DNA of 64,000 nt from Pseudomonadota bacterium (GTDB taxonomy: Bacteria > Pseudomonadota > Gammaproteobacteria > Nevskiales > Nevskiaceae), in NCBI GenBank assembly GCA_052035235.1, contig JBPOHT010000037.1:16759-80758 (forward strand), in the 5' to 3' direction. The notes beneath the pieces were generated by a model. The model was not told the DNA's origin. It did not search any database and was given only the letters and a program-made list of their open reading frames with translations. The translations under genes and the position numbers were made by a program. Positions 5,201-38,040 of this stretch are shown piece after piece (within the stretch, counting starts at the first letter, position 1; each line of letters opens with the position of its first letter).

Positions 5201-8092
5201 TCACGGCGTGTACGTCGTCACCACCGAGCCCGGCTTCGCCACGTTGCCGCCCTGCGGCAGGTAGACGTAGATGCGCCCCTCCGGCGTCGTCTCGTAGTCG
5301 TAGACGCTGCCGCTGCTCGTGCACGAGTCCAGCCACATCATCGTCGCGTCCGCCGTCGGGCCCGTGCCCGCGGCAAAATTCACGCTGTTGATGCCGCTGC
5401 GCGAGTCGCGCGAGATAACGCCCAGGTTCCAGCTGTAGGCGTTGTTCACATCGTGGATGTTGCGGTTCTGGTTCAGGTACACCAGGCAACCCACGCGGAT
5501 GATGATGCCGCCGTCGTGCATCGTAGAGCCGTTGTTCGTGCCGCCCGGCTCATGCCCACCCGAGCGCCAGATGCAGTTGAACTCGAAGGTGATCGGCGGC
5601 AGGCTGCCCGGAACGCCGTGGTAGTTCGCGTCATCCAGCACATTGCCCGCGCCCAAGCAGTCACGGACATACAGCGTGATATGCCCATCCGTGCCAAGGC
5701 CGTTCTTGCCACTGCTGCCGCCGCTGTACTTGAACGAGCAATCCCACAGATAGCCCGTGGCCATGTAGGTGCCCGTCGTCGCCGCCACCTGGAACGGCCG
5801 GCTGCCGCCCTCGAAGTCGATCCCCTTCACCCAGCAGGTACCATCCACCCGCTGGTAGCAGCCGTTGCGCGCATCCAGGAACACCAGCAGGCTCGCGTCC
5901 GGCGCCCGGTTGTTGAACGTCCGCACGTACACCGTCAGCCCGCTCACGTAATAGCTATTGGCCGTCGCCTCCACGTCATCCACGCTGGCCACCGGCACCA
6001 GGCGCGTGTAGTCCCCGTCCGCATCCAGGTTCGCCGCGTCCACCACGCTGCCTACGCTGGTGATCGTCGCCTCGTAGGTGTTCGTCTTCCCCGAGCTCAG
6101 CGCCCAGCTCAGCCCCGTGTTGTTGCGCCGGCTCACCACCCGCCCCGCAAACCCCGGCCATGGCTCCACCACCAGCCCCGCGCTGGTCGGGTTCGCATCC
6201 CGCCAGGAATCGTTGCCGGCGTACACCCCCGGCTTCACATAGATCTGCACATTCCCGCTGCGGCCATGCGCCGCCTGGTACAGGCTCTTCAGCGGGTCGC
6301 TGGCCGTACCCGCATTCGCATCGCTGCCCGTGGCCACGTCCACATACAGCGTCGTACTGGCTGCAGCCGCCTGGAACGGCCGCCGCGCCTCGAAATCGCA
6401 GTCATCGAAGAAAGACGCCGTGCTGAAGCGGTAGATGCCGAAATCCGGCTGGTAAGGGAACCCTACCGGCGGCTTCACCCGCATCTTCTGAAGCAGCCGG
6501 TCCGACGCATACAGCGTCGCGTTCTTCGCCGGCGTCAGCTCCGGCACCGCCGCCGTGTCAATCGCCGCCTGCGTATCGGCGTTGATCGTCTCCTGATACA
6601 GCTGCACCACATGCATGTTGCCGTCGCCGCGCCAGGCCAACCACACCGGCCCCGCGGGAATCCCCGACACCACGAAACTCTGCACCGTCCCATTCGGCAG
6701 CGTGATCCGCACCACGCCGGACCCATCCGCCTTGCGGGAAACCTTGATCTTCACCGTATTGCCCGCCACATAGGCGCGCCCCGCAATCGCCGGAGCAATC
6801 GCGTAATCCAGCGTCTCGTCGTCCTTCACCACCAACACCTGCCCATTGGACCGGTACAGGTACTGCCGGCGTGTCGCCCCCGCCGGGCCAAACGCCACAC
6901 CCACCATGATCGAGCTGGTGTTGATCGTGATCCCGTTGGCCGTCACCTCCCAGCTCTGCGTCAGCGCGTGGGTATTGAAGTCCGTCGACACCACCACATG
7001 TCGCCCCGACTGCGTTGAGACGATATCGAGCCCGCCCGCGTTGTACGTCGCCGTAAAGCCCGACAGCGCCGTCCCGTTCGTGCGCGCCTTGGTGAACCGC
7101 GCAATCTCCGCGAAGAACTCCGGCCGCTGGCCCGCATAGTCCTTGTCCGTGATGCGCGTGTTCACCACGTTCGTGGCGGTCGGCGTCGTCTTCACCAGCG
7201 TCGCCACCGGGCCCGAGTCCACCCGGTACACGTCATAGGCGTTGTCGGCCGACGCGCTGTAGAGGTTGAAGCTCGAACCTACCGGGTTCGCCACCCCGAT
7301 CACCGCCGTCGCGGACGCCCCCGTCAGGCCGGACGACGCCGCAAAGGACAGCGTCGGCGCAGACGTGTAGCTGAACCCCGGAAAGGTGATGAAGATCGCC
7401 GTCACCGCCCCGCCGGCCACCGTGAAGGTGCCTGCCGCATTGCTGCCGCCACCGCCGGTGAAGGCCAGCGCAAAGCTGCCATTCGTACCGCCGGAGCCGC
7501 CCACCAGGCCGGTCGTGCCCACCACCCCATTGCTCAGCCCCGCCGCCGTGCTCGGGTACACCCGCCCGCTGTTCGCCGCCGCGTCCGCATAGCCGTCCGC
7601 CAGCACCGCGCTGTCCGCCGCAGAGGCCGCGCTGGCCAGCGCGCTCGCCGCGTTGGTGGCCGAGCTGGTCGCCGCTGCCGTCGCCGTCGCCTCGCTCGCC
7701 GCCGCCTGCGCCGCGTCGATGCTCGCCTCAGCCGCACTCGTCGTCGCGCTCTGCGCAGACGCCACCGCAACCGCGGCGCTCTCCACCGCGCTCTCCGCCG
7801 CCGCCTCGATCTCCGCTAGCTTCGGCGGCTCGATGTTGTCCGCCGTCCCCACCAGCGCCCCGTTGGCATCCTCGATCCGCACGCCATACGTGCCGTTCCA
7901 GTAGATCGCCGCCTCCCCGCGCGCATCCAGGATCACCGGGTTCGGGTTCGGCACCGTCTGCGTGGCATCGGTGTAGGTCGCCTTGAAGTCGTTCGTCCCG
8001 GCCGCATAGGTGTACACCTTGCCGCCCACCAGGGGATTCCCCTTGAGGTCGAAGTACTGCTGTTTGATGTTCGGGAGCACGTAGGCCGTCAT
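5201..8092 (-). CDS. Tailspike / receptor-binding protein (963 aa), probable depolymerase
   Basis: N-terminal head-binding-type segment (QYFDLKGNPLVGGKVYTYAAGT...NPVILDARG), Ala/Ser linker, then the beta-helix-type motif LYVDVATGSDANAGTASDPLKSL. Confidence 0.75.
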   Translation of the reverse strand: MTAYVLPNIKQQYFDLKGNPLVGGKVYTYAAGTNDFKATYTDATQTVPNPNPVILDARGEAAIYWNGTYGVRIEDANGALVGTADNIEPPKLAEIEAAAESAVESAAVAVASAQSATTSAAEASIDAAQAAASEATATAAATSSATNAASALASAASAADSAVLADGYADAAANSGRVYPSTAAGLSNGVVGTTGLVGGSGGTNGSFALAFTGGGGSNAAGTFTVAGGAVTAIFITFPGFSYTSAPTLSFAASSGLTGASATAVIGVANPVGSSFNLYSASADNAYDVYRVDSGPVATLVKTTPTATNVVNTRITDKDYAGQRPEFFAEIARFTKARTNGTALSGFTATYNAGGLDIVSTQSGRHVVVSTDFNTHALTQSWEVTANGITINTSSIMVGVAFGPAGATRRQYLYRSNGQVLVVKDDETLDYAIAPAIAGRAYVAGNTVKIKVSRKADGSGVVRITLPNGTVQSFVVSGIPAGPVWLAWRGDGNMHVVQLYQETINADTQAAIDTAAVPELTPAKNATLYASDRLLQKMRVKPPVGFPYQPDFGIYRFSTASFFDDCDFEARRPFQAAAASTTLYVDVATGSDANAGTASDPLKSLYQAAHGRSGNVQIYVKPGVYAGNDSWRDANPTSAGLVVEPWPGFAGRVVSRRNNTGLSWALSSGKTNTYEATITSVGSVVDAANLDADGDYTRLVPVASVDDVEATANSYYVSGLTVYVRTFNNRAPDASLLVFLDARNGCYQRVDGTCWVKGIDFEGGSRPFQVAATTGTYMATGYLWDCSFKYSGGSSGKNGLGTDGHITLYVRDCLGAGNVLDDANYHGVPGSLPPITFEFNCIWRSGGHEPGGTNNGSTMHDGGIIIRVGCLVYLNQNRNIHDVNNAYSWNLGVISRDSRSGINSVNFAAGTGPTADATMMWLDSCTSSGSVYDYETTPEGRIYVYLPQGGNVAKPGSVVTTYTP

Positions 8093-8208
8093 GGACCACT
8101 CCGGGTGACGAAAAAAGTGACGGGCACAGCCAAGCCGCCCGGATTCGGGCAGCCAGAGCTGCAAGGGGAGATCAGCGCGCCGAGCGCGCTATGCCGAAGA
8201 CGCCGCGG

Positions 8209-13356: not shown

Positions 13357-13943
13357 CAGAGCGGCAGGCCGAACTGCGCCGTGGCGAGCTGGTGCGTACC
13401 CTGGGAGGCGTAGACGTCCGCCACGATCGAGCACACCTGCACATCCGTGCCGCCGGCGCTGGTCAGGTCAATCGCCGCGCCACCCACCGTCGCGGCCACC
13501 TGGAAGCTGTCCGTTGCCGAGGAGATCACGTAGTACGGCGTGCCCTCCACCAGGCCGCCCGGCACCACGCCGCCGTAGAACACAATCAGGTCATCATTGG
13601 CGTAGCCATGGGCCACGCAGCGCACCAGATCCACCGCGGGGTCCGCGATGAACTCCTTCGGCGTGCCCCCGCCATTCGGCGTGTAGTAGAGGAACGTCGA
13701 GGCCGCCCAGAAGCCGATCCAGCGCACCGTCGTGGCCGGCACGTCGAAGGTCACGGCCCCGCTGAGCGAGCGGATGCCGCCAGCTGCCACGCCGAAGGCT
13801 GCTGGCATGCGGGCATAGGCCGGCGCTCCGCCGCTCACCTCGTTCGCCCCGGTAAGCCCCGGGAAATCGGTGTGCAGGCTGGCCGTATCCACGGCCAGGG
13901 CATTGAGCATGGCGCCGATGGCGCTGCTGGAAATCGCGGGCAT
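13356..13943 (-). CDS. Phage virion structural protein
   Basis: 195 aa, beta-rich, translationally coupled within the late operon. Confidence 0.55.
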   Translation of the reverse strand: MPAISSSAIGAMLNALAVDTASLHTDFPGLTGANEVSGGAPAYARMPAAFGVAAGGIRSLSGAVTFDVPATTVRWIGFWAASTFLYYTPNGGGTPKEFIADPAVDLVRCVAHGYANDDLIVFYGGVVPGGLVEGTPYYVISSATDSFQVAATVGGAAIDLTSAGGTDVQVCSIVADVYASQGTHQLATAQFGLPL

Positions 13944-20989: not shown

Positions 20990-21000
20990 GCCTACTCTCC

Positions 21001-22437
21001 CTAGCCAGCCCAGATGCCAGGCTGGTGTTGTATTTGATCGCTGACACCGCGGCTCCGGCGCTTGAGCGCCTTGTCCCCACCGCTGAAAGACATCATCACG
21101 GCGTCGGCCATGTTCGGGCTGGGGATGCCCTTGGCCTTCATTTCCACCTTGCTGAGGATCTGGATACGTCCGGAGCCATTCGGCTTGCGGGGTATCCGGC
21201 ACAGCTCCGAGCGCAACTGCTGCACCCAAGGGCCCGCCGCGAAGCTGATCAGCTCTTCGGGGTCCGTGTACTTCTTGTGCACCACGGCCAGATAGGTGCG
21301 GTAGCACCGATCCCGCAGGCCCCAGTACTTCTGCGCACGAAGGTTGTAGAACGTGTCCGCATTGCTGCGGGCCTTGCCGTTGCCATCGCCCAGCGGCTCA
21401 TAAAGCGCGTCCGGATGCTCCGGCTCCGCCCCGCCATGGAACGGGATGGCGTCACACTTCTTGCCTTCCAGCGCATCGCCCACCTGGCGCCGCAGGCTCA
21501 CGCCCAGGCCATCCGCATCCCAGATAAAGGCATCCGCCTTCGCCTCTGCTGCGTGGCCGGTAGCCCAGTCCGTGGCCTCGTTCACGTCGGAGGTCGTGTT
21601 CTCCTCCACGCGGAGGATCACCACGCCGTGCCGGTGCGCGTAGGCGCGCGGATCGGACGTGTCCGATGGGTCATAGGCCACCACCTCGCGGCCCAGCGGC
21701 TTGAACCCCAGCACCAGGTGGGCATCGACGCAGGCGTCGAACCACTCGGGCAGGATGATGGCGTTCTCCACGGTGTCGGCGTACTTCCCTTCCCAGATGT
21801 GGTCGTAAAGCGACCGGGGCATCTCACGGAAATCCTTGAGGCGCTCCTTCTCGAGCACCGCCGGGAACCAGGGGTTGTCCCGGTAATTGAGTTCCACGAC
21901 GATCATGTCGTCGTCTTCGTAGTAGCCGCAGCGCGCCAGTTCAGCCTCGGCCTTCTTCAGCACCAGGCGGCTGAACGCGTCGTTCGAGCTGCCCCGGTTG
22001 GCGCTGATCCAGATTTCAGACTCTTCCTCTCGGATGGTCGGAAACAGGGTCGTGATGGTGTTCTGCGAGAGGGTCTGGCCCTCTTCGATCCAGACTTTCT
22101 TGTACCCGTACAGCGACTTCAGCGACTGGATGTTGCGCGCCAGGCCACGGTAGCTGATGAGGCCACCACTACGGTGGGCAATATCCTTCGCAGACGGGGT
22201 GAAGCCACCCACGCCCAGGGTCCTGATGCGGTCCAGCAACAGGCTGTGCACCGACTCATCGATGGAGTTCTGGAACTCGCGGGCGCACAGCACCTTCTCG
22301 CCACACGCGGCGAAGCGCACGAAGGCGTCGCCAAAACTGATGCTCTTGCCTGGCCCGCGGCCGCCTACCGCTACCTTCAGCCTCTTGGGCTTGACGAAGA
22401 GCGGAAGGAGCTTCTCAGGAATCTGGACGGTCGGCAC
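21001..22437 (-). CDS. Terminase large subunit (PBSX/XtmB type)
   Basis: Walker A GGRGPGKS, CAREFQNSI.ESV, WIEEGQ, TIREEESEIW, NYRDNPWFP, SPNMADAVMM. Confidence 0.92.
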   Translation of the reverse strand: MPTVQIPEKLLPLFVKPKRLKVAVGGRGPGKSISFGDAFVRFAACGEKVLCAREFQNSIDESVHSLLLDRIRTLGVGGFTPSAKDIAHRSGGLISYRGLARNIQSLKSLYGYKKVWIEEGQTLSQNTITTLFPTIREEESEIWISANRGSSNDAFSRLVLKKAEAELARCGYYEDDDMIVVELNYRDNPWFPAVLEKERLKDFREMPRSLYDHIWEGKYADTVENAIILPEWFDACVDAHLVLGFKPLGREVVAYDPSDTSDPRAYAHRHGVVILRVEENTTSDVNEATDWATGHAAEAKADAFIWDADGLGVSLRRQVGDALEGKKCDAIPFHGGAEPEHPDALYEPLGDGNGKARSNADTFYNLRAQKYWGLRDRCYRTYLAVVHKKYTDPEELISFAAGPWVQQLRSELCRIPRKPNGSGRIQILSKVEMKAKGIPSPNMADAVMMSFSGGDKALKRRSRGVSDQIQHQPGIWAG

Positions 22438-26326: not shown

Positions 26327-26523
26327 CCCACACCTCCCTGCACCACCGTAATCCCCACCGCCCCACCCGCCGCCGTCATCGCCGAGGCGATCCACAGCGG
26401 CAGCGGAAGAACGATGGCGGCACAGCAGAGCGCCAGCACGGCGAAGAAGACCAGGGCGCGGAACAGCAGGCGCCCCAGCAGGGAGATCGGGTGAAGGCGG
26501 GAAGCAGCGGAGAGCGGCCTCAC
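26323..26523 (-). CDS. Small phage membrane protein
   Basis: Hydrophobic LLGRLLFRALVFFAVLALCCAAIV...; follows cro; start uncertain. Confidence 0.4.
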   Translation of the reverse strand: MRPLSAASRLHPISLLGRLLFRALVFFAVLALCCAAIVLPLPLWIASAMTAAGGAVGITVVQGGVG

Positions 26524-26524
26524 G

Positions 26525-26746
26525 TCACGAAACCTTGACGCCGGAGGGGGTAATATGCTGGGAATCCGCAGAAGTAACTGCGCCCACACCAACACGAGGG
26601 GGAATCTCGTACTTCAGCTTGAGGGCGTGGCGCTCCGGGATAGGACGCCCGTCATCCCACATATAAATCGCATTGGTGGTAATCCCCAACTGGACAGCCA
26701 GCTGGGCGACGCTTCCCACATGGGCGATGGCTTCTTGCTTGGTCAC
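26525..26746 (-). CDS. cro: Cro-like regulator
   Basis: MTKQEAIAHVGSVAQLAVQLGITTNAIYMW; divergent from the repressor. Confidence 0.8.
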   Translation of the reverse strand: MTKQEAIAHVGSVAQLAVQLGITTNAIYMWDDGRPIPERHALKLKYEIPPRVGVGAVTSADSQHITPSGVKVS

Positions 26747-26754
26747 AGGGATAT

Positions 26755-26790
26755 GTAACCATGCTTACTTCGTCACGTCAACATACTTAC
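26755..26790. promoter_or_regulatory. Two operator sites in the cro/cI intergenic region
   Basis: GTAACCATGCTTAC (26755-26768) and GTCAACATACTTAC (26777-26790); a minus-strand TTGACG -35 overlaps the second. Confidence 0.65.
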
Positions 26791-26816
26791 CCCAAGCTCA
26801 ATTACAGTCCGCCGCC

Positions 26817-27191
26817 ATGGATGAACTGAGCACGAGAGTGCGCTCTGCAAGGACGCAGGCAAAAGTAACTCAGGAGATGCTGGCAGTGTCCTGCGGCATC
26901 AAGAGAGAAGCTGTTACAGCCTGGGAAAGCGGAGCCACCAAGACAATTAGCAGCGACGTGCTGTTTGACGCCGCTCGCACGCTCGCGGTCGATCCAGAAT
27001 GGCTGGCAACCGGCCGTGGCACACGGGAACCGCTCGGCACGCGCGAGTCAGCCCCTTCATACTTCGCTGTTCGACCTGCAGCCGCCACGGTCATTGCCCT
27101 CGTGCGCCAGCTTGCCGGGGACTCCAACATCCCTGACGCCGTTTTCGACTCAGTCGCGACTCTGCTGCGCCTCATTCCCCGGCGAGCTTAG
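26817..27191 (+). CDS. CI-like repressor (XRE HTH), with no recognisable S24 peptidase domain
   Basis: LSTRVRSART...TQEMLAVSCGIKREAVTAWESG...LAVDPEWLATGRG; only 124 aa. Confidence 0.8.
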   Translation: MDELSTRVRSARTQAKVTQEMLAVSCGIKREAVTAWESGATKTISSDVLFDAARTLAVDPEWLATGRGTREPLGTRESAPSYFAVRPAAATVIALVRQLAGDSNIPDAVFDSVATLLRLIPRRA

Positions 27192-27199
27192 CCCTGGGC

Positions 27200-27433
27200 T
27201 CACTGGCCAGAAAGGCCAGGCACTAGGATTTGCCACAACTCCAGGCTGAACGCACCTGCCACCTGATCCACGATCTCCAGATTCGGAGGATGCCGCGCGT
27301 GCAGCAGGTTGTTGACGGTCTTCTGTGACGTGCCAGCGCGACGTGCCACCTCGCCCTCAGTCCATTCGTTTTTGATCATCAAATGCCGAAGATTTGAGGC
27401 AAGTGTTTCACGGGGAGAGGAGCGCTTTGCCAT
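27200..27433 (-). CDS. XRE-family HTH protein
   Basis: LASNLRHLM...WTEGEVARRAGTSQKTVNNL. Confidence 0.75.
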   Translation of the reverse strand: MAKRSSPRETLASNLRHLMIKNEWTEGEVARRAGTSQKTVNNLLHARHPPNLEIVDQVAGAFSLELWQILVPGLSGQ

Positions 27434-27442
27434 CGGCGTAAA

Positions 27443-27757
27443 TTAGTCAACCTCTCTAACGCATTGATCCACTCGATGCAAAGTGATGTCGAGCGCCTTC
27501 GTCCGGCTGTTTAGCTCCTCCAGCATTCCACGGAGCCGATCAACTTCAGCGGATACATATCGGGCATGCGCCAGGGTCTCACCACCCTCAGCTGCACCAC
27601 GCCAACCACCCCCGAACGCATAAAAATTCAACACCACCGGCAACACAGCAAACCACCACGGCGAGCTGGCCGCCAGGCATGCAATTAGCCAAATCATGGA
27701 GGTAATACTGACTCCGTAGACACGGCGCATGGTTAAGGGCTTTGTGCCGCTCATCAT
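27443..27757 (-). CDS. Membrane protein with C-terminal coiled-coil (moron-like)
   Basis: AGGAG RBS; hydrophobic IWLIACLAASSPWWFAVLPVVLNF; AT-richer than its neighbours. Confidence 0.5.
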   Translation of the reverse strand: MMSGTKPLTMRRVYGVSITSMIWLIACLAASSPWWFAVLPVVLNFYAFGGGWRGAAEGGETLAHARYVSAEVDRLRGMLEELNSRTKALDITLHRVDQCVREVD

Positions 27758-27817
27758 GGTTCTCCTAAACGTGGCCCGCAGAATATCACTCTGCATGACT
27801 ACCGTTCGTCGGAAAAT

Positions 27818-27870
27818 GTAACTTTGCTTACATTGTAATGTTGCCATGCTTACGTAAGCATGTTTACTAT
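27818..27870 (+). promoter_or_regulatory. Early (pL-like) promoter with three operators, upstream of the DGR-containing operon
   Basis: Operators at 27818-27831, 27840-27853 and 27854-27867; TTGCCA-N18-TACTAT (27841-27870). Confidence 0.65.
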
Positions 27871-27894
27871 GCTCCCACACCCCAGGGAGCACCC

Positions 27895-28335
27895 ATGACC
27901 ACCATCCAGAAGCTCGACGCCGCCGGCAACCTCCTGCCCGCCGACACCACCGCCCACGCCATCCTCGTCATCAACGGCCTGCGCATCGACGTGCGCCCCC
28001 GCGAGTTCTCCGAGAACCACGCCGCCGCCATGGCCGAGTGCCAGGCCGTGGACCTGCTGGGCCTGACCTGGCGCGCCGCCACCCGCCGCGAAGTCCTCGC
28101 CCTCGTGGACGACGAGAACCCCAACGGCCCCTTCGACAAGACCCTCTTCCCCAACCTGCCGGAATACGGCTGGCTCTGGACCTCCACTCCCTACGCCCGC
28201 GAGGAAGACCCTGCCGCTCCGGTTTGTGCCTGGGGCGTCCCCCTCTACGACGGCGACGCCCACCTCGCCAACCGCCGCTACGAAGGGCTCGCCCTCCCCG
28301 TGTCGCCGTTGGCCGCGCCCGCCAGTCAGTCCTAG
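27895..28335 (+). CDS. DGR target protein 1 (DUF1566/Lcl C-type-lectin-like, 146 aa)
   Basis: WRAAT..E...D...P..D...FP.....WTST...AWGV; 3' end carries VR1. Confidence 0.85.
   Translation: MTTIQKLDAAGNLLPADTTAHAILVINGLRIDVRPREFSENHAAAMAECQAVDLLGLTWRAATRREVLALVDDENPNGPFDKTLFPNLPEYGWLWTSTPYAREEDPAAPVCAWGVPLYDGDAHLANRRYEGLALPVSPLAAPASQS
28211..28326 (+). repeat. DGR variable repeat VR1
   Basis: 116 bp, 13 mismatches to TR, all at TR adenines. Confidence 0.95.
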
Positions 28336-28380
28336 GGCCTTGGGGCTTTTCCTCCTCAATCCATCACCGGAGTTCCATTC

Positions 28381-28818
28381 GTGACCACCATCCAGAAGCT
28401 CGACGCCGCCGGCAACCAACTGCCCGCCGACACCACCGCCCACGCCATCCTCGTCATCAACGGCCTGCGCATCGACGTGCGCCCCCGCACCAAGAAGGCC
28501 TGGGCCAAGGCCATCGGCAGCTGCGATGAAGGCGATCTGCTCGCGCTCCCCTGGCGAGCCGCCACCCTGCCGGAAGTCCTGTCCGTAGCCGACTTCAACA
28601 ACCCCAACGGCCCCTTCGACAAGACCCTCTTCCCCAACCTGCCGGAATACGGCTGGCTCTGGACCTCCACCCCCTACGCCCGCGAGGAAGACCCTGCCGC
28701 TCCGGTTTGTGCCTGGGGCGTCGACCTCTGCGACGGCTACGCCGACATCGGCGGCCGCTACGACGAAGGGCTCGCCCTCCCCGTGTCGCCGTTGGCCGCG
28801 CCCGCCAGTCAGTCCTAG
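28381..28818 (+). CDS. DGR target protein 2 (145 aa)
   Basis: Paralog of target 1; GTG start; 3' end carries VR2. Confidence 0.85.
   Translation: MTTIQKLDAAGNQLPADTTAHAILVINGLRIDVRPRTKKAWAKAIGSCDEGDLLALPWRAATLPEVLSVADFNNPNGPFDKTLFPNLPEYGWLWTSTPYAREEDPAAPVCAWGVDLCDGYADIGGRYDEGLALPVSPLAAPASQS
28694..28809 (+). repeat. DGR variable repeat VR2
   Basis: 116 bp, 13 mismatches to TR, all at TR adenines. Confidence 0.95.
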
Positions 28819-28896
28819 GGCTTTGGGGCTTTCCCTTCCATCCATGCGGAACGCAGCGATGCCTATCGACATCACCCATCACCAGGAAGCCCGCGC

Positions 28897-29115
28897 ATGA
28901 GCGGCGTCACCCGCATCGGCTCTGTGGTCGTGGAAACCACAGACCGTGCCCTGGCGCTGCGCGTGGCCCAGGCCGCTGCCAGCGTGCTGGAACACCGCGG
29001 CTTCATGCGCACCGAGGGTGTTGCCGTGCGCTGGGCCAGCGCCTGGCACTACGACGAGCACGGCTTCGGCAGCTCGGAGAGCGGCGCGGCTGCCGGCAAC
29101 CAGGAACAGGGGTAG
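28897..29115 (+). CDS. Hypothetical phage protein
   Basis: 72 aa in the early operon; AGGA upstream. Confidence 0.45.
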   Translation: MSGVTRIGSVVVETTDRALALRVAQAAASVLEHRGFMRTEGVAVRWASAWHYDEHGFGSSESGAAAGNQEQG

Positions 29116-29118
29116 ACC

Positions 29119-29307
29119 ATGACCACCTCACTGCCGCCCGGCTCCTTCACCGCGCCCCACCCGGAGGACTCCTGCCACTCGCAGCCCGACGCACCGGCCG
29201 AGCGCATCGGCGAGTGCGACCTGTGCGGCGAGGTGGACCATCACCTGGTGCAGGGCTCCTGCGAAACCTGCCGCCGCCACTACCGCATGGAGGCTGGCCA
29301 ATGCTGA
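29119..29307 (+). CDS. Small protein with CxxC..CxxC zinc-finger motif
   Basis: ECDLCGEVDHHLVQGSCETC. Confidence 0.5.
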   Translation: MTTSLPPGSFTAPHPEDSCHSQPDAPAERIGECDLCGEVDHHLVQGSCETCRRHYRMEAGQC

Positions 29308-29465
29308 CCATCCAGCGCGTGGAAGCGGCGCCGCTGGCCGGCATCCCCATCAGTCAGGCCGAGCTGCGTGGCGTGACGGTGGACGACTTCCTGCGCCGCG
29401 CCCTGGCGCGCGGCTTCGCCGTGGCCCAGCACAAATCCACGTTCTTCCTCGTCCGCATCCACTGA
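29301..29465 (+). CDS. Hypothetical phage protein (54 aa)
   Basis: GGAGG RBS at 29289; MLTIQRVEAAP... Confidence 0.5.
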   Translation: MLTIQRVEAAPLAGIPISQAELRGVTVDDFLRRALARGFAVAQHKSTFFLVRIH

Positions 29466-29476
29466 CGGAGATCCCC

Positions 29477-29725
29477 ATGCGCAAGCCTATCCCGCCCATT
29501 GTCCTGCAGGAAAACTTCAAACCGCAGTCGCTGGAAGTGCAGAAGCAAACCCTCGCCCGCCTGGTGCACGAGACGGACCTGGACCAGAACCGCGGCTGGC
29601 TGCATCCCAACGTCGCCGCGCTCCGCCGCTACGACCTCAAGTCGATCTTCCACACCCTCTCGAATCTGCCGGCGCCGGTTGCAGCCGGCGAGCCCACCCA
29701 GCCCTCCAGCCAGGAAGCCGCATGA
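29477..29725 (+). CDS. Hypothetical phage protein
   Basis: GGAG RBS; ATGA overlap with the next gene. Confidence 0.55.
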   Translation: MRKPIPPIVLQENFKPQSLEVQKQTLARLVHETDLDQNRGWLHPNVAALRRYDLKSIFHTLSNLPAPVAAGEPTQPSSQEAA

Positions 29726-30234
29726 ACCTGTTCCAGCGCTTTGCCCAGTGGCTCATCCAGCGCGCCAGCGCGCGCGCGCCGGACTTCATCATCGGCGAGC
29801 GTGCCGAGCCGTACATCCGCCGCTGGTGGGTGATCCCGCGCAACCCGTTCTTCAACATCTACCTGCACGAGATCCTGCGCGGCGACCCTGACCGCGCCCT
29901 GCACTGCCACCCCTGGGCCAACGTCTCCATCCTGCTCCAGGGCGGCTATATCGAGCGCCTACCGCTGCGCCAGGCGCAACAGCCGAGCTGGGACTACGTG
30001 CCCGGCTACACCTATGACGTGGTGCGCAAGGCCGGGCAGGCCTGGGGGCGCCTCGGCCACTTCCGCCATCGGCTGTTCGTGCCGGAGGGCGGCCACTGCT
30101 GGAGCCTGTTCCTCACCGGGCCGGTGTATCGCCGCTGGGGCTTCCACTGCAAGGCCGACTGGGTCTACTGGCGCGATTACGTCAGCGACAAGGACAAGGG
30201 CCTGGTTGGGCGCGGCTGCGGGGAGCATGCATGA
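29722..30234 (+). CDS. Cupin-like phage protein
   Basis: YLHEILRGD.DRALHCHPW..S.LLQGGY.E ... FRHRL ... WSLFLTGP...WGF. Confidence 0.6.
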   Translation: MNLFQRFAQWLIQRASARAPDFIIGERAEPYIRRWWVIPRNPFFNIYLHEILRGDPDRALHCHPWANVSILLQGGYIERLPLRQAQQPSWDYVPGYTYDVVRKAGQAWGRLGHFRHRLFVPEGGHCWSLFLTGPVYRRWGFHCKADWVYWRDYVSDKDKGLVGRGCGEHA

Positions 30235-30428
30235 GCGCCACCCAGAACCACCCCGGCACGCCGCGCTGCGCGGACTGCACGCTGCCCATGCACGGCACCG
30301 ACCAGCACGAAGGCCCGGACCAGAAGCTCTATCACGGCGCCTGCTTTGGCCGCCTCTTCACCACGGCGCGCCACTACCAGGAAGGCCAGGGCAATCTGAG
30401 CTTTGCTCACGAAGAGCAGCGGGAGTAA
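30231..30428 (+). CDS. Small Cys/His-containing phage protein
   Basis: CADC...YHGAC; ATGA-coupled. Confidence 0.45.
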   Translation: MSATQNHPGTPRCADCTLPMHGTDQHEGPDQKLYHGACFGRLFTTARHYQEGQGNLSFAHEEQRE

Positions 30429-30507
30429 TGGGATGTTGCTTCCTGAAATTCCCACACGTGGTCACTCGACAGCGGCCGAGCCGACGCAATTCCAAGGGGA
30501 TTCGTAA

Positions 30508-30960
30508 ATGATCGCCGAAGAAATGGCAGAGCACATCATCAAGGGCACGGCGCCGGACCGGAAGACGCTGTGCGGGTGGTATGAGGCCCTGCAACAGGCA
30601 CCGTCCGCAGGCGCAGCAATTGCTGTAGTACGCCACAAGCCGTGCAAGAACCACGGCGGGCGCCCGGATGTTCAGTCGAACATCGACTGGCTGGGCGAAC
30701 CTCCCGCAGAAGGAACCCACCTATTTGCCGGGACGAGGACCGCAGATGGCGTCTCCGATAGCTTCCGCGCCGACGCACTCTACTCCGCCCTCACCCAGGT
30801 CATGGAGTTGCTGCGTCAGGATAGTGATGACCCTGAAGACCCCATGTCGAATTTCCGGTTCGACTCTCGCTGGGAGGAGATAGCGGAGGTCGCGGATGCG
30901 GCGCTGGAGTTACACGCCGAATCGAATCTGCTGCGATCAGGGCAACCCAAGGGCCGCTAG
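30508..30960 (+). CDS. Hypothetical phage protein
   Basis: 150-aa ORF in operon orientation. Confidence 0.5.
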   Translation: MIAEEMAEHIIKGTAPDRKTLCGWYEALQQAPSAGAAIAVVRHKPCKNHGGRPDVQSNIDWLGEPPAEGTHLFAGTRTADGVSDSFRADALYSALTQVMELLRQDSDDPEDPMSNFRFDSRWEEIAEVADAALELHAESNLLRSGQPKGR

Positions 30961-31036
30961 CCGCCCTGATCGCCGCGAACTACCACCACGCATCCCGCCG
31001 CGCCAAAGCGGCCTGACCCACCCACCCGAGAAACCC

Positions 31037-31618
31037 ATGACCAATCTCAGCATCATCCTCGCCGCCGGCGACAGCATCCGCATTTCGCGGCATGGCGCCC
31101 AGACCACCATGCTTCTGGAGGATTGCCAGGCGCTGCAGTCCGCGCCCACGGTCGGCACTGCCGGAGCCTGCACGCAGCCGCGCCACACCAAGCTGGATGC
31201 CAGCGGCACCGAGCTGCCCCTCACCAGCCGCGATCACTCCTTCCTGATCGACCGCAAGGCCGGCCTGATCATCGACGTGCGCGCCCTGCATCGCGGCAAC
31301 CACGAGAGCTGCACCCGCTTCGCCGCCGAGTCCAAGGCCCTGGACCGCACCTGGCGCCTGGGCACCGTGGAGGAGCTGTTCCTCTACGTCGCCGACCGCA
31401 CCAAGCAGGACCCCGCCGTCGATCGGGACCTGTTCCCGCGCCTGGGCAACGACTTGCTCTGGACCTGCACGCCGGATGCAAAGCCGTCCGATCCTGCCGC
31501 TCCGGTTTATGCCTGGGGCGTCAACCTCAGCAACGGCCTCGCCGGCGTCAGCAACCGCAACCGCGAAGGGCTCGCCCTCCCCGTGTCGCCGTTGGCCGCG
31601 CCCGCCAGTCAGTCCTAG
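31037..31618 (+). CDS. DGR target protein 3 (193 aa, with an N-terminal extension)
   Basis: HTKLDASG, IDRKAGL, WRLGTVEEL, DRDLFP, LWTCT; 3' end carries VR3. Confidence 0.85.
   Translation: MTNLSIILAAGDSIRISRHGAQTTMLLEDCQALQSAPTVGTAGACTQPRHTKLDASGTELPLTSRDHSFLIDRKAGLIIDVRALHRGNHESCTRFAAESKALDRTWRLGTVEELFLYVADRTKQDPAVDRDLFPRLGNDLLWTCTPDAKPSDPAAPVYAWGVNLSNGLAGVSNRNREGLALPVSPLAAPASQS
31494..31609 (+). repeat. DGR variable repeat VR3
   Basis: 116 bp, 9 mismatches to TR, all at TR adenines. Confidence 0.95.
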
Positions 31619-31660
31619 GGCTTTGGGCTGCGACCTTTCAATCCACACCGGAGACTCTTC

Positions 31661-32098
31661 GTGACCAAGATCCTAAAGTACGACGCCAAGGGAAACCTGC
31701 TGCCGGCGGATTCCACCAAGCACGCCATCCTGCTGGTCAACGATCTGCGCATCGACGTGCGCAAGCGCAAGGCCGTGCCGCATGCCCAGGCCATGGCCCA
31801 GTGCGCCAAGGTGAATCTGCTGGGTGCCACCTGGCGCTCCGCCACGGTTCGCGAGGCCTGGGCGCTGGCGGACCTCACCAACCCGAACGGGCCGTTCGAC
31901 AAGAACCTGTTCCCGCACTTCCCGGAATACGGCTGGCTCTGGACGTCCGACCCCTATGCCCGCGAGGCCGATTCTGCCGCTCCGGTTTTTGCCTGGGGCG
32001 TCGGCCTCCCCAACGGCTTCGCCTACGTCGGCAGCCGCCACTACGAAGGGCTCGCCCTCCCCGTGTCGCCGTTGGCCGCGCCCGCCAGTCAGTCCTAG
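31661..32098 (+). CDS. DGR target protein 4 (145 aa)
   Basis: Paralog of targets 1 and 2; 3' end carries VR4; directly upstream of avd. Confidence 0.85.
   Translation: MTKILKYDAKGNLLPADSTKHAILLVNDLRIDVRKRKAVPHAQAMAQCAKVNLLGATWRSATVREAWALADLTNPNGPFDKNLFPHFPEYGWLWTSDPYAREADSAAPVFAWGVGLPNGFAYVGSRHYEGLALPVSPLAAPASQS
31974..32089 (+). repeat. DGR variable repeat VR4
   Basis: 116 bp, 14 mismatches to TR, all at TR adenines. Confidence 0.95.
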
Positions 32099-32114
32099 GG
32101 CATAGGGGCTTTTA

Positions 32115-32558
32115 ATGTCTTTTGACCTGCCGCCGATCATCAAGAAAGCCGAGCTTGTCCGGGCCATGGCCGAGGCCGCCGTAGCGACGTGGCCGCGCCA
32201 TCACCGGTATGCGCACGGCGGTGAGCTGCGGCGGCAGGCAAAGGAAGTGGTACGCCTGGCCCACAAGGCCTGGACGGACCGCGGCGAGCGGCCGCAGCAC
32301 CTGACCAGCCTCGCCGCGGCGGTCGATGACCTCAAGGCCGATCTGCGCCTAGGCCAGATGATCCGGGTGTTCCGGAGCTTCGGGCAGTTCGACGCGATCA
32401 TGGTCGAGGCCAAAGACCTCGGGAAACAATGCGGAGCCCTGAAAAGACGGCATCCGCTGCAGGAGCACTCCAAGGGCCAGAATGCGCAGGCCTCTCGCGC
32501 CGGCGCAGCGCGCCCAGATACTGAGTACCCCGGCCGCCTCGCAGGGGCCATGGGATGA
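32115..32558 (+). CDS. avd: DGR accessory variability determinant (Avd, four-helix bundle)
   Basis: Basic helical protein: WPRHHRYAHGGELRR, LKADLRLG, LGKQCGAL; sits between target and TR/RT. Confidence 0.8.
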   Translation: MSFDLPPIIKKAELVRAMAEAAVATWPRHHRYAHGGELRRQAKEVVRLAHKAWTDRGERPQHLTSLAAAVDDLKADLRLGQMIRVFRSFGQFDAIMVEAKDLGKQCGALKRRHPLQEHSKGQNAQASRAGAARPDTEYPGRLAGAMG

Positions 32559-33910
32559 CGAAGCCTGCCTACGCCAACACGGGATGGCCGGCCTGGTCCA
32601 AAGAGTCGGGGGACGCTGCCGCTCCGGTTTATGCCTGGGGCGTCAACCTCAACAACGGCAACGCCAACATCAACAACCGCAACAACGAAGGGCTCGCCCT
32701 CCCCGTGTCGCCGTTGGCCGCGCCCGCCAGTGAGTATCAGAGTGCGGGGCGCATCAGCCGACAGGATCTGTTCAAGGCCTTCTGGACTGCCCGCAAGGGC
32801 AAGGTGCCCAGCTGCAACCGCATGCGCTTCGAAGCCGACTGGCACGAGCGCATCACCTTCCTGGAGCAGCAGATCAACAGCCACATGTGGCTGCCGCTGC
32901 CCACGTCCGTCTTCGTGGCAGAAACCCCCAAGGCCCGGCAGATCCACGCGCCGGACTTCGAGGACCGCGTCGTCCACCACTGGATCGTGCCCAAGCTGGA
33001 ACAGCGCTACGAGCCCATCTTCATCGCGGACTCCTACGCCAACCGTCGCGGCAAAGGCTGCCACGCCGCCGTGCGCCAGCTCACTCGCTTCGTCCGCCAG
33101 GTCGCCAGCGGCCAGGGCCGCGGCTGGTATCTGCAGCTCGATATCGCCAACTGCTTCAACTCCATCAACCGCAAGCGCCTCTGGCGCATGGTCCGCCGCA
33201 TGATGCAGCGCTGGCGCATGCCGGAGATCGAGCAGCGCGTCGTGCACGCCCTGCTCCGCCGCTCCCCGCTGGAGCAGGGCATCCGCAGCCGTGCCTCACC
33301 GGCGCAGCTGGCCAAGGTCCCGTACCACAAGCGCCTGGAGGCCGCGGCGCCCGGCTGCGGACTTCCCATCGGCAGCCTGCCCAGCCAGTTCCTGGCCAAC
33401 GTCTACCTCAACGCCCTGGACCAGTTCGTCAAGCACGTCCTCAAGGCCAAGCGCTACCTGCGCTACGCCGACGACTTCGTCCTGGTCCACGAGAGCCGCG
33501 AGCAGCTCCAGACCTGGCACCGCCAGATCGAGGCCTTCCTGCACCGCGAGCTGGGCCTGCGCCTGAAGGACGACGTCCGCCTGCGGCCGCTGGAAGACGG
33601 CATCGACTTCCTGGGCTACATCGTGCGCCCCACCCACACCCTCGTGCGCCGCCGCGTCGTCACCCACGCCAAGACCAAGCTACAGGCCTGGGAGCGCGCC
33701 CACGTGCGCGCAGACGCCATCGTCGCCACGCCAGAGGCCCTGCGCGCCGGGCTCGCGGTCTGGCGCAGCTACCAGGGCCATTTCCAGCACGCCAATACGC
33801 ACAGGCTCCAGCAGGGCCTGCAGGAGCGCTTCCCCTGGCTGCCCGCGCTCCAACGCCGGCGGCGCACCGATCACAGGCATGAAGGCCGGACATTGAGGAT
33901 TGCCATATGA
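32555..33910 (+). CDS. DGR reverse transcriptase (TR in frame at the 5' end; start uncertain)
   Basis: ARKGK, RQIHAPDFEDRVVHH, FIADSYANRRGKG.H, LQLDIANCFNSI, GLPIGSLPSQFLANVYL, YLRYADDF, IDFLGY. Confidence 0.95.
   Translation: MTKPAYANTGWPAWSKESGDAAAPVYAWGVNLNNGNANINNRNNEGLALPVSPLAAPASEYQSAGRISRQDLFKAFWTARKGKVPSCNRMRFEADWHERITFLEQQINSHMWLPLPTSVFVAETPKARQIHAPDFEDRVVHHWIVPKLEQRYEPIFIADSYANRRGKGCHAAVRQLTRFVRQVASGQGRGWYLQLDIANCFNSINRKRLWRMVRRMMQRWRMPEIEQRVVHALLRRSPLEQGIRSRASPAQLAKVPYHKRLEAAAPGCGLPIGSLPSQFLANVYLNALDQFVKHVLKAKRYLRYADDFVLVHESREQLQTWHRQIEAFLHRELGLRLKDDVRLRPLEDGIDFLGYIVRPTHTLVRRRVVTHAKTKLQAWERAHVRADAIVATPEALRAGLAVWRSYQGHFQHANTHRLQQGLQERFPWLPALQRRRRTDHRHEGRTLRIAI
32616..32731 (+). ncRNA. 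DGR template repeat (TR)
   Basis: Nine AAC codons plus TAT and ATC; A-rich master copy of the four VRs; lies between avd and the RT core. Confidence 0.93.
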
Positions 33911-34251
33911 CGCAGAACACCAACACCGAGCGCGACAGCATGAACGCCACACCCATTCGGGTTTTTGTGATGAACGACATGGAGTGGTGGGCAGGCGCAT
34001 GCACCCCCGAGGAAATGCTCGCCTACTACATGCATGAGACGGGCGTTACTCGCGAGGAAGCGCTGGGCGATGACGATCCCAATGCGCTGCCGGAGCCGCT
34101 GACCGACGAGCAGATGGACAAGCTCCGCATTGCCGAGGTGGACGAAAACGAGCGCCCGACCGGCCAGCGCCCCACCTTCCGCGAGGCCCTGGACGCCATG
34201 ATCGCAGCGGGCCAGGAATTCCCATGCCTGTTTGCCTCAACGGAGTGGTAG
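33907..34251 (+). CDS. Hypothetical acidic phage protein
   Basis: ATGA overlap with the RT stop. Confidence 0.6.
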   Translation: MTQNTNTERDSMNATPIRVFVMNDMEWWAGACTPEEMLAYYMHETGVTREEALGDDDPNALPEPLTDEQMDKLRIAEVDENERPTGQRPTFREALDAMIAAGQEFPCLFASTEW

Positions 34252-34253
34252 CC

Positions 34254-34667
34254 ATGCCGGCAGGACTGGGCATAGCTGATGATCCGGTTGTCGGCCACAA
34301 AACCTTCCTCAGTAAGGAAGGCGGCTTCCGCCACCTGCCGCTGCTGCAGTCCGAAGCCGATGCGATCCTGAAGAAGTGCGATGAGGAAGATGCCAGGCGC
34401 AAGGAGCTGATGCCGGACGAGAGCACCGCCATCCGCATGATGTTCGATGCGTGGCTTCGCTTGAAGCAGCTGGGGTGGAAGGAAGCCATCTATTGCCCCA
34501 AGGACGGGAGCGTGTTTGACGCGATTGAGCCTGGCTCTACTGGCATCCACCACTGCAACTACCAAGGCGAATGGCCCAACGGCAGCTGGTGGACCCACAG
34601 CGAAGACGACGTCTTCCCCAGCCATCCGGTGCTGTTCAAAGTCCCGCAGGAGCCCAAGACCCCATGA
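34254..34667 (+). CDS. Hypothetical phage protein
   Basis: WLRLKQLGWKEAIYCPKDGS; starts 2 nt after the previous stop. Confidence 0.55.
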   Translation: MPAGLGIADDPVVGHKTFLSKEGGFRHLPLLQSEADAILKKCDEEDARRKELMPDESTAIRMMFDAWLRLKQLGWKEAIYCPKDGSVFDAIEPGSTGIHHCNYQGEWPNGSWWTHSEDDVFPSHPVLFKVPQEPKTP

Positions 34668-35347
34668 GCGTCATCGAAGGAGGCCGCATGAACAGCAAAA
34701 GACTGCCCCCAGTCCCGGACGCTTTGGCGTACTCGCGGAACTACGCGATCGCCAGCCCTTACCTGAATAGCACAGCTCGGGAGCACATCGAGGGACTGTG
34801 TGACCTGCTGGAGCAGACCGAAGCAGCGCGCCTGGCCGCCGTCGAATCTGCGGGAGCATTGCAGCCGAGCGTGAGCGCCACAGAGGGCGATAGGATCGCG
34901 GCGTTGGAGAGGCAGTTGGCCGAAGCCCTGGAATCGCGCGCATTCACCCAGCAGTGGTACGCCGAGCGATGGAAGACGCTGGAGGACTGGTTCCGCAGCG
35001 AGGGCAAAGACCTGCCCATCCGCGACCAGTTCTGGAGCATCCTCGCCAACGGCGTCAAGGATGCGAACACCCCGCCGACTTATGCCCAGCAGCTCAACAT
35101 CGCCAAGCACCGCGCCGAACGTGCAGAGAAAGAGCGCGCCGCTTTGATGGGCGGGATGCAGGCTGTCGCGAAGGACGCCGCGACCTTTCGCTATCTCCAG
35201 AAGCTGGCAGAGGATGAGGAGAATCCGAGGCTTCATCCTGCTTTCTATGTTGGGAAAGCGGAGGCTTACGACGTGGCCGCAGGCGAATTGGAAGCCATCC
35301 TGACTCCGGAAATCCGGCAACTGCTGGTTGGGAAGAATCAGGGATGA
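34664..35347 (+). CDS. Hypothetical coiled-coil phage protein
   Basis: ATGA overlaps at both ends. Confidence 0.55.
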   Translation: MSVIEGGRMNSKRLPPVPDALAYSRNYAIASPYLNSTAREHIEGLCDLLEQTEAARLAAVESAGALQPSVSATEGDRIAALERQLAEALESRAFTQQWYAERWKTLEDWFRSEGKDLPIRDQFWSILANGVKDANTPPTYAQQLNIAKHRAERAEKERAALMGGMQAVAKDAATFRYLQKLAEDEENPRLHPAFYVGKAEAYDVAAGELEAILTPEIRQLLVGKNQG

Positions 35348-35643
35348 TCTGCCCAGACTGCAAAGGCGCCAAGGACGTTTTCGCCTTCGTCAACACCGGC
35401 CCCGACGCCAGCAAGCACCGCAGCGGCATGATGCCGTGCCGGCGATGCAGCGGCCGCGGCGCGGTCCCGTTCCAGATGGCGGAGTGGATGCGCCAGGGCC
35501 GGCTGATGCGCGATGCCCGCGTGGCGCGCCGCGAGAGCCTACGGGAAGCAGCCCAACGCCTGGGCATGGGCAGCGCCGTTCTTTCGCGTCTGGAGCAGGG
35601 CTACGAGCCGATACCGGAGTCCTTGTTGAGGGCGATGCAGTGA
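35344..35643 (+). CDS. Zinc finger plus XRE-HTH protein
   Basis: CPDC...CRRC, then RESLREAAQRLGMGSAVLSRLEQG. Confidence 0.7.
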   Translation: MICPDCKGAKDVFAFVNTGPDASKHRSGMMPCRRCSGRGAVPFQMAEWMRQGRLMRDARVARRESLREAAQRLGMGSAVLSRLEQGYEPIPESLLRAMQ

Positions 35644-35648
35644 TCCAG

Positions 35649-35957
35649 TCACTCACCCCGCTGTCTCGGAGCATCGGACCTGTCCGGCCGGCAGGTCGGG
35701 GCCAGTCGAAACTCCGGCATGCGGCCGCCACAGCGGCCACAGACGGCCTTGGCGACCAGCGTGGCGCAGGAGATGTCGCCGTATCGCTCGATCAAGTCCA
35801 GGGGATCAAACTGTCCGCACTTCTGGCACCTGGTGCAGTGCAGCCGGATCCAATCCTGCCCGACGTGATCAGACAGTTCACCGATTGGGCCAGGGTTCGG
35901 GTTTTCGTCGCGGCGCCTCATCAGGCCAGCAGGATACCGCGCACAGCGCCCCGGCAC
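35649..35957 (-). CDS. Small zinc-ribbon protein, antisense to the operon
   Basis: LHCTRC...LIERYG...AVCGRCG; start uncertain. Confidence 0.5.
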   Translation of the reverse strand: MPGRCARYPAGLMRRRDENPNPGPIGELSDHVGQDWIRLHCTRCQKCGQFDPLDLIERYGDISCATLVAKAVCGRCGGRMPEFRLAPTCRPDRSDAPRQRGE

Positions 35958-35992
35958 CTCAACGAGGTCGCCCAGGTCCCGGAGGCGCTTCC

Positions 35993-36142
35993 ATGAAACC
36001 CACGCCGCCTATCCATGCACTGCTGCAGCTACTGGCCCAGCAGGCCGTGCGCGAGCATCTAACAGCAGTTCGCCAACCGAATCAGCAGGATGCGCCCGCG
36101 CGCTCAAATCACCCTCTGCCGAACAAATCGGCCAACCGGTAG
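35993..36142 (+). CDS. 49-aa protein directly upstream of the integrase (directionality-factor candidate)
   Basis: GGAGG RBS at 35981; MKPTPPIHALLQLLAQQAVREHL. Confidence 0.5.
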   Translation: MKPTPPIHALLQLLAQQAVREHLTAVRQPNQQDAPARSNHPLPNKSANR

Positions 36143-36152
36143 CGTGTCCCAG

Positions 36153-37772
<1,620 letters not shown>

Positions 37773-37786
37773 CCAGACAGACGACC

Positions 37787-37815
37787 ATTGTAGTCTGTTA
37801 CCACTGATCAATCAA
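37787..37815 (-). promoter_or_regulatory. Sigma70 promoter for tRNA-fMet
   Basis: TTGATT-N17-TACAAT, 14 nt upstream of the tRNA. Confidence 0.65.
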
Positions 37816-37896
37816 CCACTTTGCGCTGTCTTGAGCCTGCTTTTCGAAGGCTTGGACAACCTCCGGACGATTGGCTCCGGAGTACTGCTTTTGGGG

Positions 37897-37981
37897 TGGT
37901 GCCCACGGAGAGACTCGAACTCCCATGGCTCTCGCCGTTACCACCTCAAGGTAGTGTGTCTACCAATTCCACCACGTGGGC
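37897..37981 (-). tRNA. leuU: tRNA-Leu (GAG)
   Basis: 85 nt, long variable arm, CCA end; downstream of secG (symbol by synteny). Confidence 0.95.
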
Positions 37982-38040
37982 ACTGCTTACCAAAACCACC
38001 GACGGATCACGATGCTGCCGAGGTCTGTCGAGGGGCGCGG

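Follow-up and report, generated by a model that had tools for sequence, protein, structure and literature searches.

Four small targets of a diversity-generating retroelement, with a predicted lectin fold, lie in a putative early operon in a P22-like prophage and may act inside the infected cell

Diversity-generating retroelements (DGRs) of phages are known from textbooks as devices for tropism switching via tail proteins. Here, we analyzed a DGR located in a 64,000-nucleotide (nt) stretch of a Nevskiaceae genome (assembly GCA_052035235.1, contig JBPOHT010000037.1, positions 16,759 to 80,758), termed the window, in which all coordinates are counted from the first letter. The element appears to be carried by a temperate P22-like prophage of a Solimonas host and represents a well-delimited case of another, recurrent class: early, signal-less, domain-only diversified lectins that are tied to the recombination and integration arm and not to the virion module. 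It can be compared with the mtd-avd-TR-brt cassette of Bordetella phage BPP-1. As in BPP-1, the window contains the parts for mutagenic retrohoming, a variable repeat (VR) at the C-terminus of a C-type-lectin fold and a template repeat (TR) with AAC-rich codons. However, Mtd is a proven receptor-binding protein of 381 amino acids (aa) whose N-terminal domains dock on the tail fibres, whereas the four targets in the window, T1 to T4, are lectin-domain-only proteins encoded in an early operon and not in or beside the tail module.

Targets of this architecture have been catalogued before. Wu et al. 2018 (PMC5758913) describe a category d, the CLec2 targets, which comprises DUF1566, DUF823 as well as Fib_succ_major proteins and accounts for 14% of DGRs; about half of its members are short and DUF1566-only. 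The proteins described here share with this category a DUF1566-type lectin fold whose C-terminus bears the VR. Its type example, Legionella LdtA, is an exported surface lipoprotein, whereas T1 to T4 are without signal peptide, lipobox or twin-arginine translocation (Tat) motif, and placement in phage early operons was outside the analysis of that paper. The best structural match of T1 is the C-terminal domain of Lcl from Legionella pneumophila (8Q4E, PF07603), at a sequence identity of ~14%. Lcl differs in being a secreted collagen-like adhesin that is not diversified by a DGR; it is reported to form a trimer.

The closest relative in layout is Magia (MT701587; PMC7883833), a cultured temperate Burkholderia myophage whose targets are annotated as 'lectin fold domain protein; potential DGR target'. 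Magia likewise has a C2-like repressor/Cro switch, and its early-left operon opens with gp57, a short lectin-fold target, followed by small open reading frames (ORFs), a nuclease, RecT, the targets gp47 and gp46, Avd, the reverse transcriptase (RT) and the integrase, with three VRs for one TR. Alignment of gp57 to the profile of our target family gave an hhalign probability of 93.7%. A tblastn search with T1 against 50,697 phage records found nothing, so Magia is only remotely similar in sequence; it also differs in being a myovirus, in its tyrosine integrase and in having three targets of 120-154 aa. The Magia publication (Gafford-Gaby et al. 2021, PMC7883833) suggests only adaptation or host range as a role.

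In a survey of viral DGRs, Roux et al. 2021 (PMC8144416) reported most targets to be annotated as tail proteins and genuine non-membrane targets as 'to be established'. According to Doré et al. 2024 (PMC10907252), cellular DGRs of multicellular bacteria diversify putative intracellular antigen sensors. The likeness to the window lies in the diversification of proteins thought to be intracellular and to belong to conflict systems, yet the sensors are large, multidomain and cell-encoded, whereas the window targets are tiny, phage-encoded and without effector domain. In the literature we searched, no paper analysed the early-operon placement or tested target function. The layout is in part already known, having been catalogued in pieces (Wu 2018 category d; Magia), and the novelty that a first-pass annotation of the window had claimed is overstated: the short DUF1566-only kind of target already forms part of category d in Wu et al. 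2018 (PMC5758913), and the same layout is annotated in Magia. What distinguishes the window are its four targets and a predicted promoter with operator-like sites directly before the first of them, giving an explicit link to an immunity switch.

The components of the retroelement are the following.
27895..28335, + strand: T1, 146 aa, single Lcl_C domain (Pfam Lcl_C, E 5.5e-9), VR1 at 28210-28326
28381..28818, + strand: T2, 145 aa, GTG start (Pfam Lcl_C, E 3.8e-7), VR2 at 28693-28809
31037..31618, + strand: T3, 193 aa (Pfam Lcl_C, E 9.2e-10), VR3 at 31493-31609
31661..32098, + strand: T4, 145 aa, GTG start (Pfam Lcl_C, E 2.1e-8), VR4 at 31973-32089
32115..32558, + strand: Avd-like accessory protein, 147 aa, of typical size and position
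32555..33910, + strand: DGR RT ORF, 451 aa (Pfam RVT_1, E 1.9e-21)
32615..32731, + strand: TR core, 117 nt with 23 adenines, in frame at the 5' end of the RT ORF

With an Avd-like gene, RT, one TR and four VRs the DGR is complete, and by its defining features it is a standard one. The RT translation (32555-33910) shows the IGSLPSQ and YADD motifs. A repeat search and alignment of the window yielded five repeat copies, four of which form the 3' ends of the genes T1 to T4. Over the 117-nt core, VR1 to VR4 differ from the TR at 13, 13, 9 and 14 positions, respectively; all differences (49/49) fall on TR adenines and none on other bases. AAC (Asn) is the dominant codon of the TR, whose translation reads ...PVYAWGVNLNNGNANINNRNNEGLALPVSPLAAPAS. 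Eleven codons vary among the four targets, namely one Tyr, one Ile and nine Asn/AAC codons. All four VRs are mutually different, and the adenines of the Glu codon that follows the variable patch are unaltered in each of them. The four VR ends are identical (…CCAGTCAGTCC) and split from the TR (…CCAGTGAGTAT) right after a shared 42-mer.

This invariant TR 42-mer is present in exactly five copies, the four VRs and the TR, in the 4.95-Mb genome when up to 3 mismatches are allowed, and a protein-profile search of the genome matched the same five places only. The tailspike is without a VR because these are the only copies, in line with the earlier remark that its 3' end has no TR similarity. The genome-wide search at <=3 mismatches rules out remote VRs, whether in the tailspike or at another place.

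Two parts of the element are weak by sequence criteria. The Avd protein matches Pfam bAvd with E 8e-5 and 23.5 bits, below the curated cut-off of 40, and NCBIfam DivGenRetAVD with E 5e-7 and 30 bits, below the curated cut-off of 80. For the hairpin of the initiation of mutagenic homing (IMH) site, the inverted repeat 3' of each VR is weak and requires G-T pairs. An Rfam search of 26-38.2 kb at a permissive E-value returned two tRNAs only and no DGR RNA family. The ATG of the RT ORF overlaps the avd stop codon, and the RT domain begins only at residue 126; the true RT start may lie downstream of the TR.

The lectin-fold assignment of the first-pass annotation is borne out by Pfam matches and structure prediction, which together identify T1 to T4 as single-domain Lcl_C/DUF1566 proteins with a predicted C-type-lectin fold. 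Lcl_C (PF07603) was matched by all four, with 36.8 bits for T1, 39.3 for T3, 34.9 for T4 and 30.9 for T2, against a gathering cut-off of 34.9; T2 falls below this score, yet is 79% identical to T1. T3 consists of the Lcl_C domain plus a 48-aa N-terminal extension without family match, and long-form relatives of it were found (P0013, P0017, P0022 and P0030). For T1, an AlphaFold (AF2) model built from a 112-sequence alignment of small homologues reached a mean predicted local distance difference test (pLDDT) of 90.8 and a predicted template modelling score (pTM) of 0.84. It replaced a first model from a 9-sequence alignment, which had a pLDDT of 67.8 and gave an uninformative fold search. In Foldseek, the top PDB match of the model was 8q4e, the Legionella Lcl C-terminal domain (probability 1.00, template modelling scores 0.51/0.56, root-mean-square deviation 3.3 Å over 120 columns). 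Almost all others among the top 50 PDB matches were C-type lectin-like domains, and an uncultured tailed phage supplied the best viral match, a DUF1566 protein. The variable residues 111-129 of T1 map to a predicted hairpin of strands 111-116 and 123-126.

Since the lectin domain fills the whole 145-146 aa of the short targets, no room is left for a docking domain. Size and lack of export signals also proved to be as first described (145-193 aa; no signal peptide, lipobox or transmembrane segment). The maximal 19-residue Kyte-Doolittle mean of T1 to T4 does not exceed 1.06 from either possible start, and a hydropathy and motif scan that included the longer alternative ORFs found no lipobox, Tat motif or transmembrane segment. 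The longer starts of T1 (27838) and T3 (30896) were rejected, as the shorter ones have Shine-Dalgarno-like sequences and fit the paralogues; for T1, the extension would in addition overlap the promoter. PHROGs contains no family for T1 to T4, and homology to any described anti-defence family was not detected. A profile search of the PDB sequences with the target family gave nothing meaningful, and megablast of the region gave tRNA matches only.

T1 and T2 are near-identical over gene nt 1-107, 241-330 and 391-444. Their middle block (nt ~108-240; residues ~36-80, corresponding to two helices of the fold) has an identity of 55-75% and lies at 28002-28135 and 28488-28620, respectively. This divergence was not made by the DGR; mosaic recombination could account for it, as could diversifying selection that acts on a different face of the protein.

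The targets lie in an arm that runs from an immunity switch to the integrase, with the following features.
26525-26746, - strand: cro-like gene
26755-26768 and 26777-26790, strand-neutral: two GTAA-N6-TTAC palindromes between cro and cI
ATG 26818, end 27191, + strand: cI-like repressor gene, divergent
27200-27433, - strand: second helix-turn-helix (HTH) gene (phrog_4583, annotated repressor)
27443 to ~27760, - strand: small ORF of ~100 aa with a long hydrophobic stretch
27818-27831, 27840-27853 (2 mismatches) and 27854-27867, strand-neutral: three operator-like GTAA-N6-TTAC palindromes, overlapping the promoter
27841..27870, + strand: pL-like sigma-70 promoter, TTGCCA-18-TACTAT, predicted by consensus
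28897..30960, + strand: six small early ORFs (72, 62, 82, 170, 65 and 150 aa) between the target pairs
33907..35643, + strand: downstream early ORFs (114, 147, ~258 and 99 aa)
36090..37739, + strand: large serine integrase (phrog_95, E 5.7e-82), its 3' end overlapping tRNA-Met

The pL-like site is the sole promoter-like sequence on the + strand within 26400-38000 and lies 25 nt 5' of the T1 start codon, which is preceded by the Shine-Dalgarno sequence GGGAG. The GTAA-N6-TTAC motif occurs six times in the window against 2.0 expected, and 4/6 matches lie within the two clusters, where the repressor would be expected to bind. From 27895 to the serine integrase all credible genes are on the + strand. 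No convincing + strand terminator was found between T1 and int, the sole site being a weak inverted repeat after VR4. Because a single promoter precedes T1 and no convincing terminator follows, 27895-37739 can be read as an analogue of the lambda/P22 pL operon, i.e., a predicted single transcription unit that would be silent in the lysogen and the first to be expressed. The early-operon location put forward by the first-pass annotation agrees with this picture of a cI-to-integrase arm behind a predicted promoter with operator-like palindromes. Likewise, the separation from the tailspike, given earlier as about 20 kb on opposite strands, was measured as 19.7 kb from T1 to the tailspike end, with the virion genes on the - strand.

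We then asked how far this placement recurs. Close homologues of the targets are few (9 proteins, 4 of them from the window itself), and no relatives could be confirmed when genome contigs were scanned with the close-family profile. The family profile matched 4072 representatives of a 50%-identity library at E <= 1e-3, a count that includes many long multi-repeat DUF1566 proteins. A word-indexed search gave at least 1720 clusters of ~80-255 aa, most among the matches listed being 135-165 aa long. The profile thereby extends into a very large family, whose members are domain-only proteins of ~138-148 aa. Among related genomes the family is present in 5/61, as expected of phage cargo.

Ten related contigs, picked by length only, were sampled for gene neighbourhood. 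In 9/10, the small Lcl_C genes lie between a Cro/repressor switch or recombination genes and an excisionase or integrase; in the tenth (L017), they lie in the cro-side early operon beside replication genes. The recombination genes near the sampled cassettes encode RecT, ERF, YqaJ, DUF3799/RecE-like and Sak4-like proteins. In 7/10 contigs, bAvd and/or RT genes follow directly 3' of the targets, and VR/TR sets of 1-3 VRs plus a TR are present at the sampled DGR loci. Four targets, as in the window, is the highest number among the loci examined. Two contigs with a lambda-type GpA terminase, L020 and L022, have an early-arm layout nearly as in the window, in the order two short targets, YfdP/DUF2303 or ParB, long target, Avd and RT; L020 also ends its cassette with a serine integrase. 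The cassette therefore spans virion types, being found in P22-like (window), GpA-terminase (L020, L022) and myovirus (Magia) backgrounds. The podophage Xfas53 has a homologue in its early-left operon, with neither RT nor DGR.

In addition, a census of 25 IMG/VR loci covered 8 kb on either side and compared the 148 largest upstream ORFs and the 148 largest downstream ORFs with Pfam; the family lists hold the 25 commonest families per set, so single occurrences may be missed. Counted as downstream plus upstream, RVT_1 was found 17 + 2 times, further Lcl_C 7 + 3, ParB_N 4 + 3, Phage_integrase or Resolvase 7 + 2 and DNA methyltransferases 7 + 3, along with HTH proteins, DnaB/primase and RecT/ERF/YqaJ/DUF3799. 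Of virion genes, the families listed for the 296 neighbouring ORFs included one GpA terminase but neither capsid nor portal nor tail families. DNA methyltransferases (C5, N6_N4, Dam) are thus among the commonest large neighbours, with 10/296 ORFs at these loci (L064-L088), and they were also seen near the cassettes in L017 and L020.

Two relatives deserve separate mention. A 28.7-kb contig (P0012, JGI 3300059473) has window-like early-arm synteny with three Lcl_C genes, and no RVT_1 or bAvd match was found among the genes downstream of them; its DGR enzymes could have been lost or be located elsewhere. A genome of the same family (G021) has six small-lectin profile matches, three each on C58 and C47, which suggests two such cassettes in one genome.

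Based on these data, a mechanism can be proposed. With repressor absent, as after infection or when the prophage is induced, transcription would start at the pL-like promoter (27841-27870) and would cover, in this order, T1, T2, the six small ORFs, T3, T4, avd, TR-RT, the four downstream ORFs and probably int. RT and Avd would copy the TR RNA with adenine-specific errors, and the cDNA would replace the final ~117 nt of coding sequence of any target in replicating phage DNA. Every progeny genome would in this way receive its own set of four variants, and in the next infection these would belong to the very first proteins made. The products would be soluble single-domain Lcl_C lectins whose 11 variable residues, on one beta-hairpin, form a variable binding face. 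We propose that they work within the infected cell, upon a variable factor of the host or of a competitor, and not as receptor-binding proteins of the virion. The logic of selection would fit such a role, as variants arising in lytic growth would act on the next infection from its start.

The reading with the best support is a role of the targets within the infected cell, with a probability that we put at roughly 0.55, because the cassette goes along with the arm for immunity, recombination and integration, stands at the head of the early operon and encodes no docking domain. A receptor-binding accessory is expected to travel with the tail on which it docks. Of the non-tropism role suggested by the first-pass annotation, the basis in fold, size, missing export signals and an early placement that recurs across virion modules has held, while its novelty had been overstated; anti-defence decoys, anti-repressors and superinfection effectors, the roles it named, are candidates.

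Several points weigh on the other side. Promoter and operators are consensus predictions, and T3, T4, avd and RT could have a separate promoter. The absence of a signal peptide is equally expected of virion proteins and does not discriminate. Moreover, a close relative, the 191-aa protein of a 1851-bp ENA contig (P0008), whose lectin domain shares 55% identity with that of T1, bears a clear N-terminal signal peptide (MRKFTPALTGGLVALLLTALGAAPALA…), and therefore the family is able to work outside the cell. In Legionella, the Lcl domain serves as an adhesin module outside the cell. To our knowledge, every phage DGR target with experimental evidence, i.e., Mtd of BPP-1, is a receptor-binding protein of the virion, and we know of no anti-defence family with such a fold.

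These points feed into the most serious competing explanation, in which the small lectins would join the virion (at tailspike, tail needle or capsid) or be released at lysis, serving as diversified adhesins or receptor-binding accessories in tropism or adhesion. It has the precedent of BPP-1 Mtd (PMC5758913) and the annotation of most viral DGR targets as tail proteins by Roux et al. 2021 (PMC8144416) in its favour, and small single-domain 'target2' lectins were assumed to be of this kind by Baykov et al. 2023 (PMC10743442). Large phage tail fibres also carry C-type-lectin and DUF1566 domains at their tips, the Lcl domain is that of an adhesin (8q4e), and signal peptides are absent from virion proteins and present in P0008. 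Against it speaks that the targets come first in an early operon with predicted repressor control, on the strand opposite to the tailspike and 19.7 kb away from it. A phage with two to four paralogues, each without docking domain, would need a docking site for every one of them. Whether the backbone is that of a podovirus, of a GpA-terminase phage or of a myovirus, the cassette stays with the early/integration module, and no capsid, portal or tail family is among those listed for the 296 ORFs of the 25 loci. Taken together, we consider a virion or lysis-released function rather unlikely.

Alternatively, the targets could be made in the lysogen for the benefit of host or prophage, e.g., in superinfection exclusion, in sensing or in binding parts of incoming phages. 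The cassette adjoins the immunity region, with the hydrophobic ORF and the second HTH gene just upstream on the other strand, and intracellular sensors diversified by cellular DGRs are on record (PMC10907252). However, three operator-like sites of the cro/cI type overlap the T1 promoter, so repression is predicted in the lysogen, and the patchy distribution of the family among related genomes is that of phage cargo. Expression from the prophage is therefore quite improbable in our estimate. That the ORFs are mere homing sites of a selfish retroelement with neutral variation and no selected binding-face function, for which one might cite families annotated only as of 'unknown function', is very improbable given a scaffold conserved in at least 1720 protein clusters, open frames in all four copies, unaltered Glu-codon adenines in the four VRs and synteny conserved across distant phages.

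Returning to the intracellular reading, the leading guess for the class of ligand, predicted from the neighbourhood, is anti-defence or host takeover. The early/immunity neighbourhood is the usual place of host-takeover and counter-defence genes in temperate phages, and the guess is made because such a neighbourhood usually encodes these functions and because methyltransferases are frequent neighbours; a study of gut prophages (PMC12629997) makes a similar remark on second VRs. In its widest form, the proposal would be that a widespread group of temperate phages of proteobacteria use a DGR on two to four tiny cytoplasmic early lectins, and not on the adsorption apparatus, as an antibody-like library of intracellular binders, from which rare variants that neutralise a host defence or a variable factor of the host or of a rival phage are selected in the next infection. 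This extended version is put forward tentatively and is less likely than not. If the targets do work inside the cell, phages would own a binder system that is programmable by mutation for intracellular conflicts, and binder evolution could use its lectins as a natural scaffold of compact size (~145 aa, 11 variable positions). A direct test is possible, as Magia, which has the same layout, is a cultured phage.

The second HTH gene and the hydrophobic ORF sit between the cI-like gene and the pL-like promoter and point away from T1; this pair (27200-27760) could encode a second regulator and a membrane protein of the superinfection-exclusion type. Among the six small ORFs between the target pairs, the 170-aa ORF (29722-30234) matches phrog_4786, annotated 'cysteine dioxygenase' (E 3e-52), and has no Pfam or NCBIfam match; for the other five no family matches were obtained. 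The 99-aa ORF, which is the last of the downstream early set, has an HTH domain and is a possible excisionase or regulator.

The surrounding element reads as a temperate P22-like prophage of ~34.7 kb, judged from its gene content and attachment sites. The NusA encoded beside attL is 98% identical to Solimonas proteins. The remaining features are listed below.
3025-3042 (attL) and 37696-37713 (attR), strand-neutral: att core, an 18-bp direct repeat (TGGTAGCGGGGGCAGGAT) that delimits the ~34.7-kb prophage
4688-5191, - strand: endolysin
5201..8164, - strand: tailspike, 987 aa, without VR (phrog_32409, tail fiber; phrog_16653, hydrolase)
11497-12531, - strand: ejection protein
13943-15358, - strand: Hc3 head-closure protein
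16517-17761, - strand: major head protein
18653-21307, - strand: P22_portal
21001-22437, - strand: large terminase, Terminase_3

The att core coincides with the 3' end of a tRNA-Met gene (37696-37772, - strand). As the serine integrase ORF crosses this core and stops at 37739, the C-terminus of the integrase depends on the integration state of the phage.

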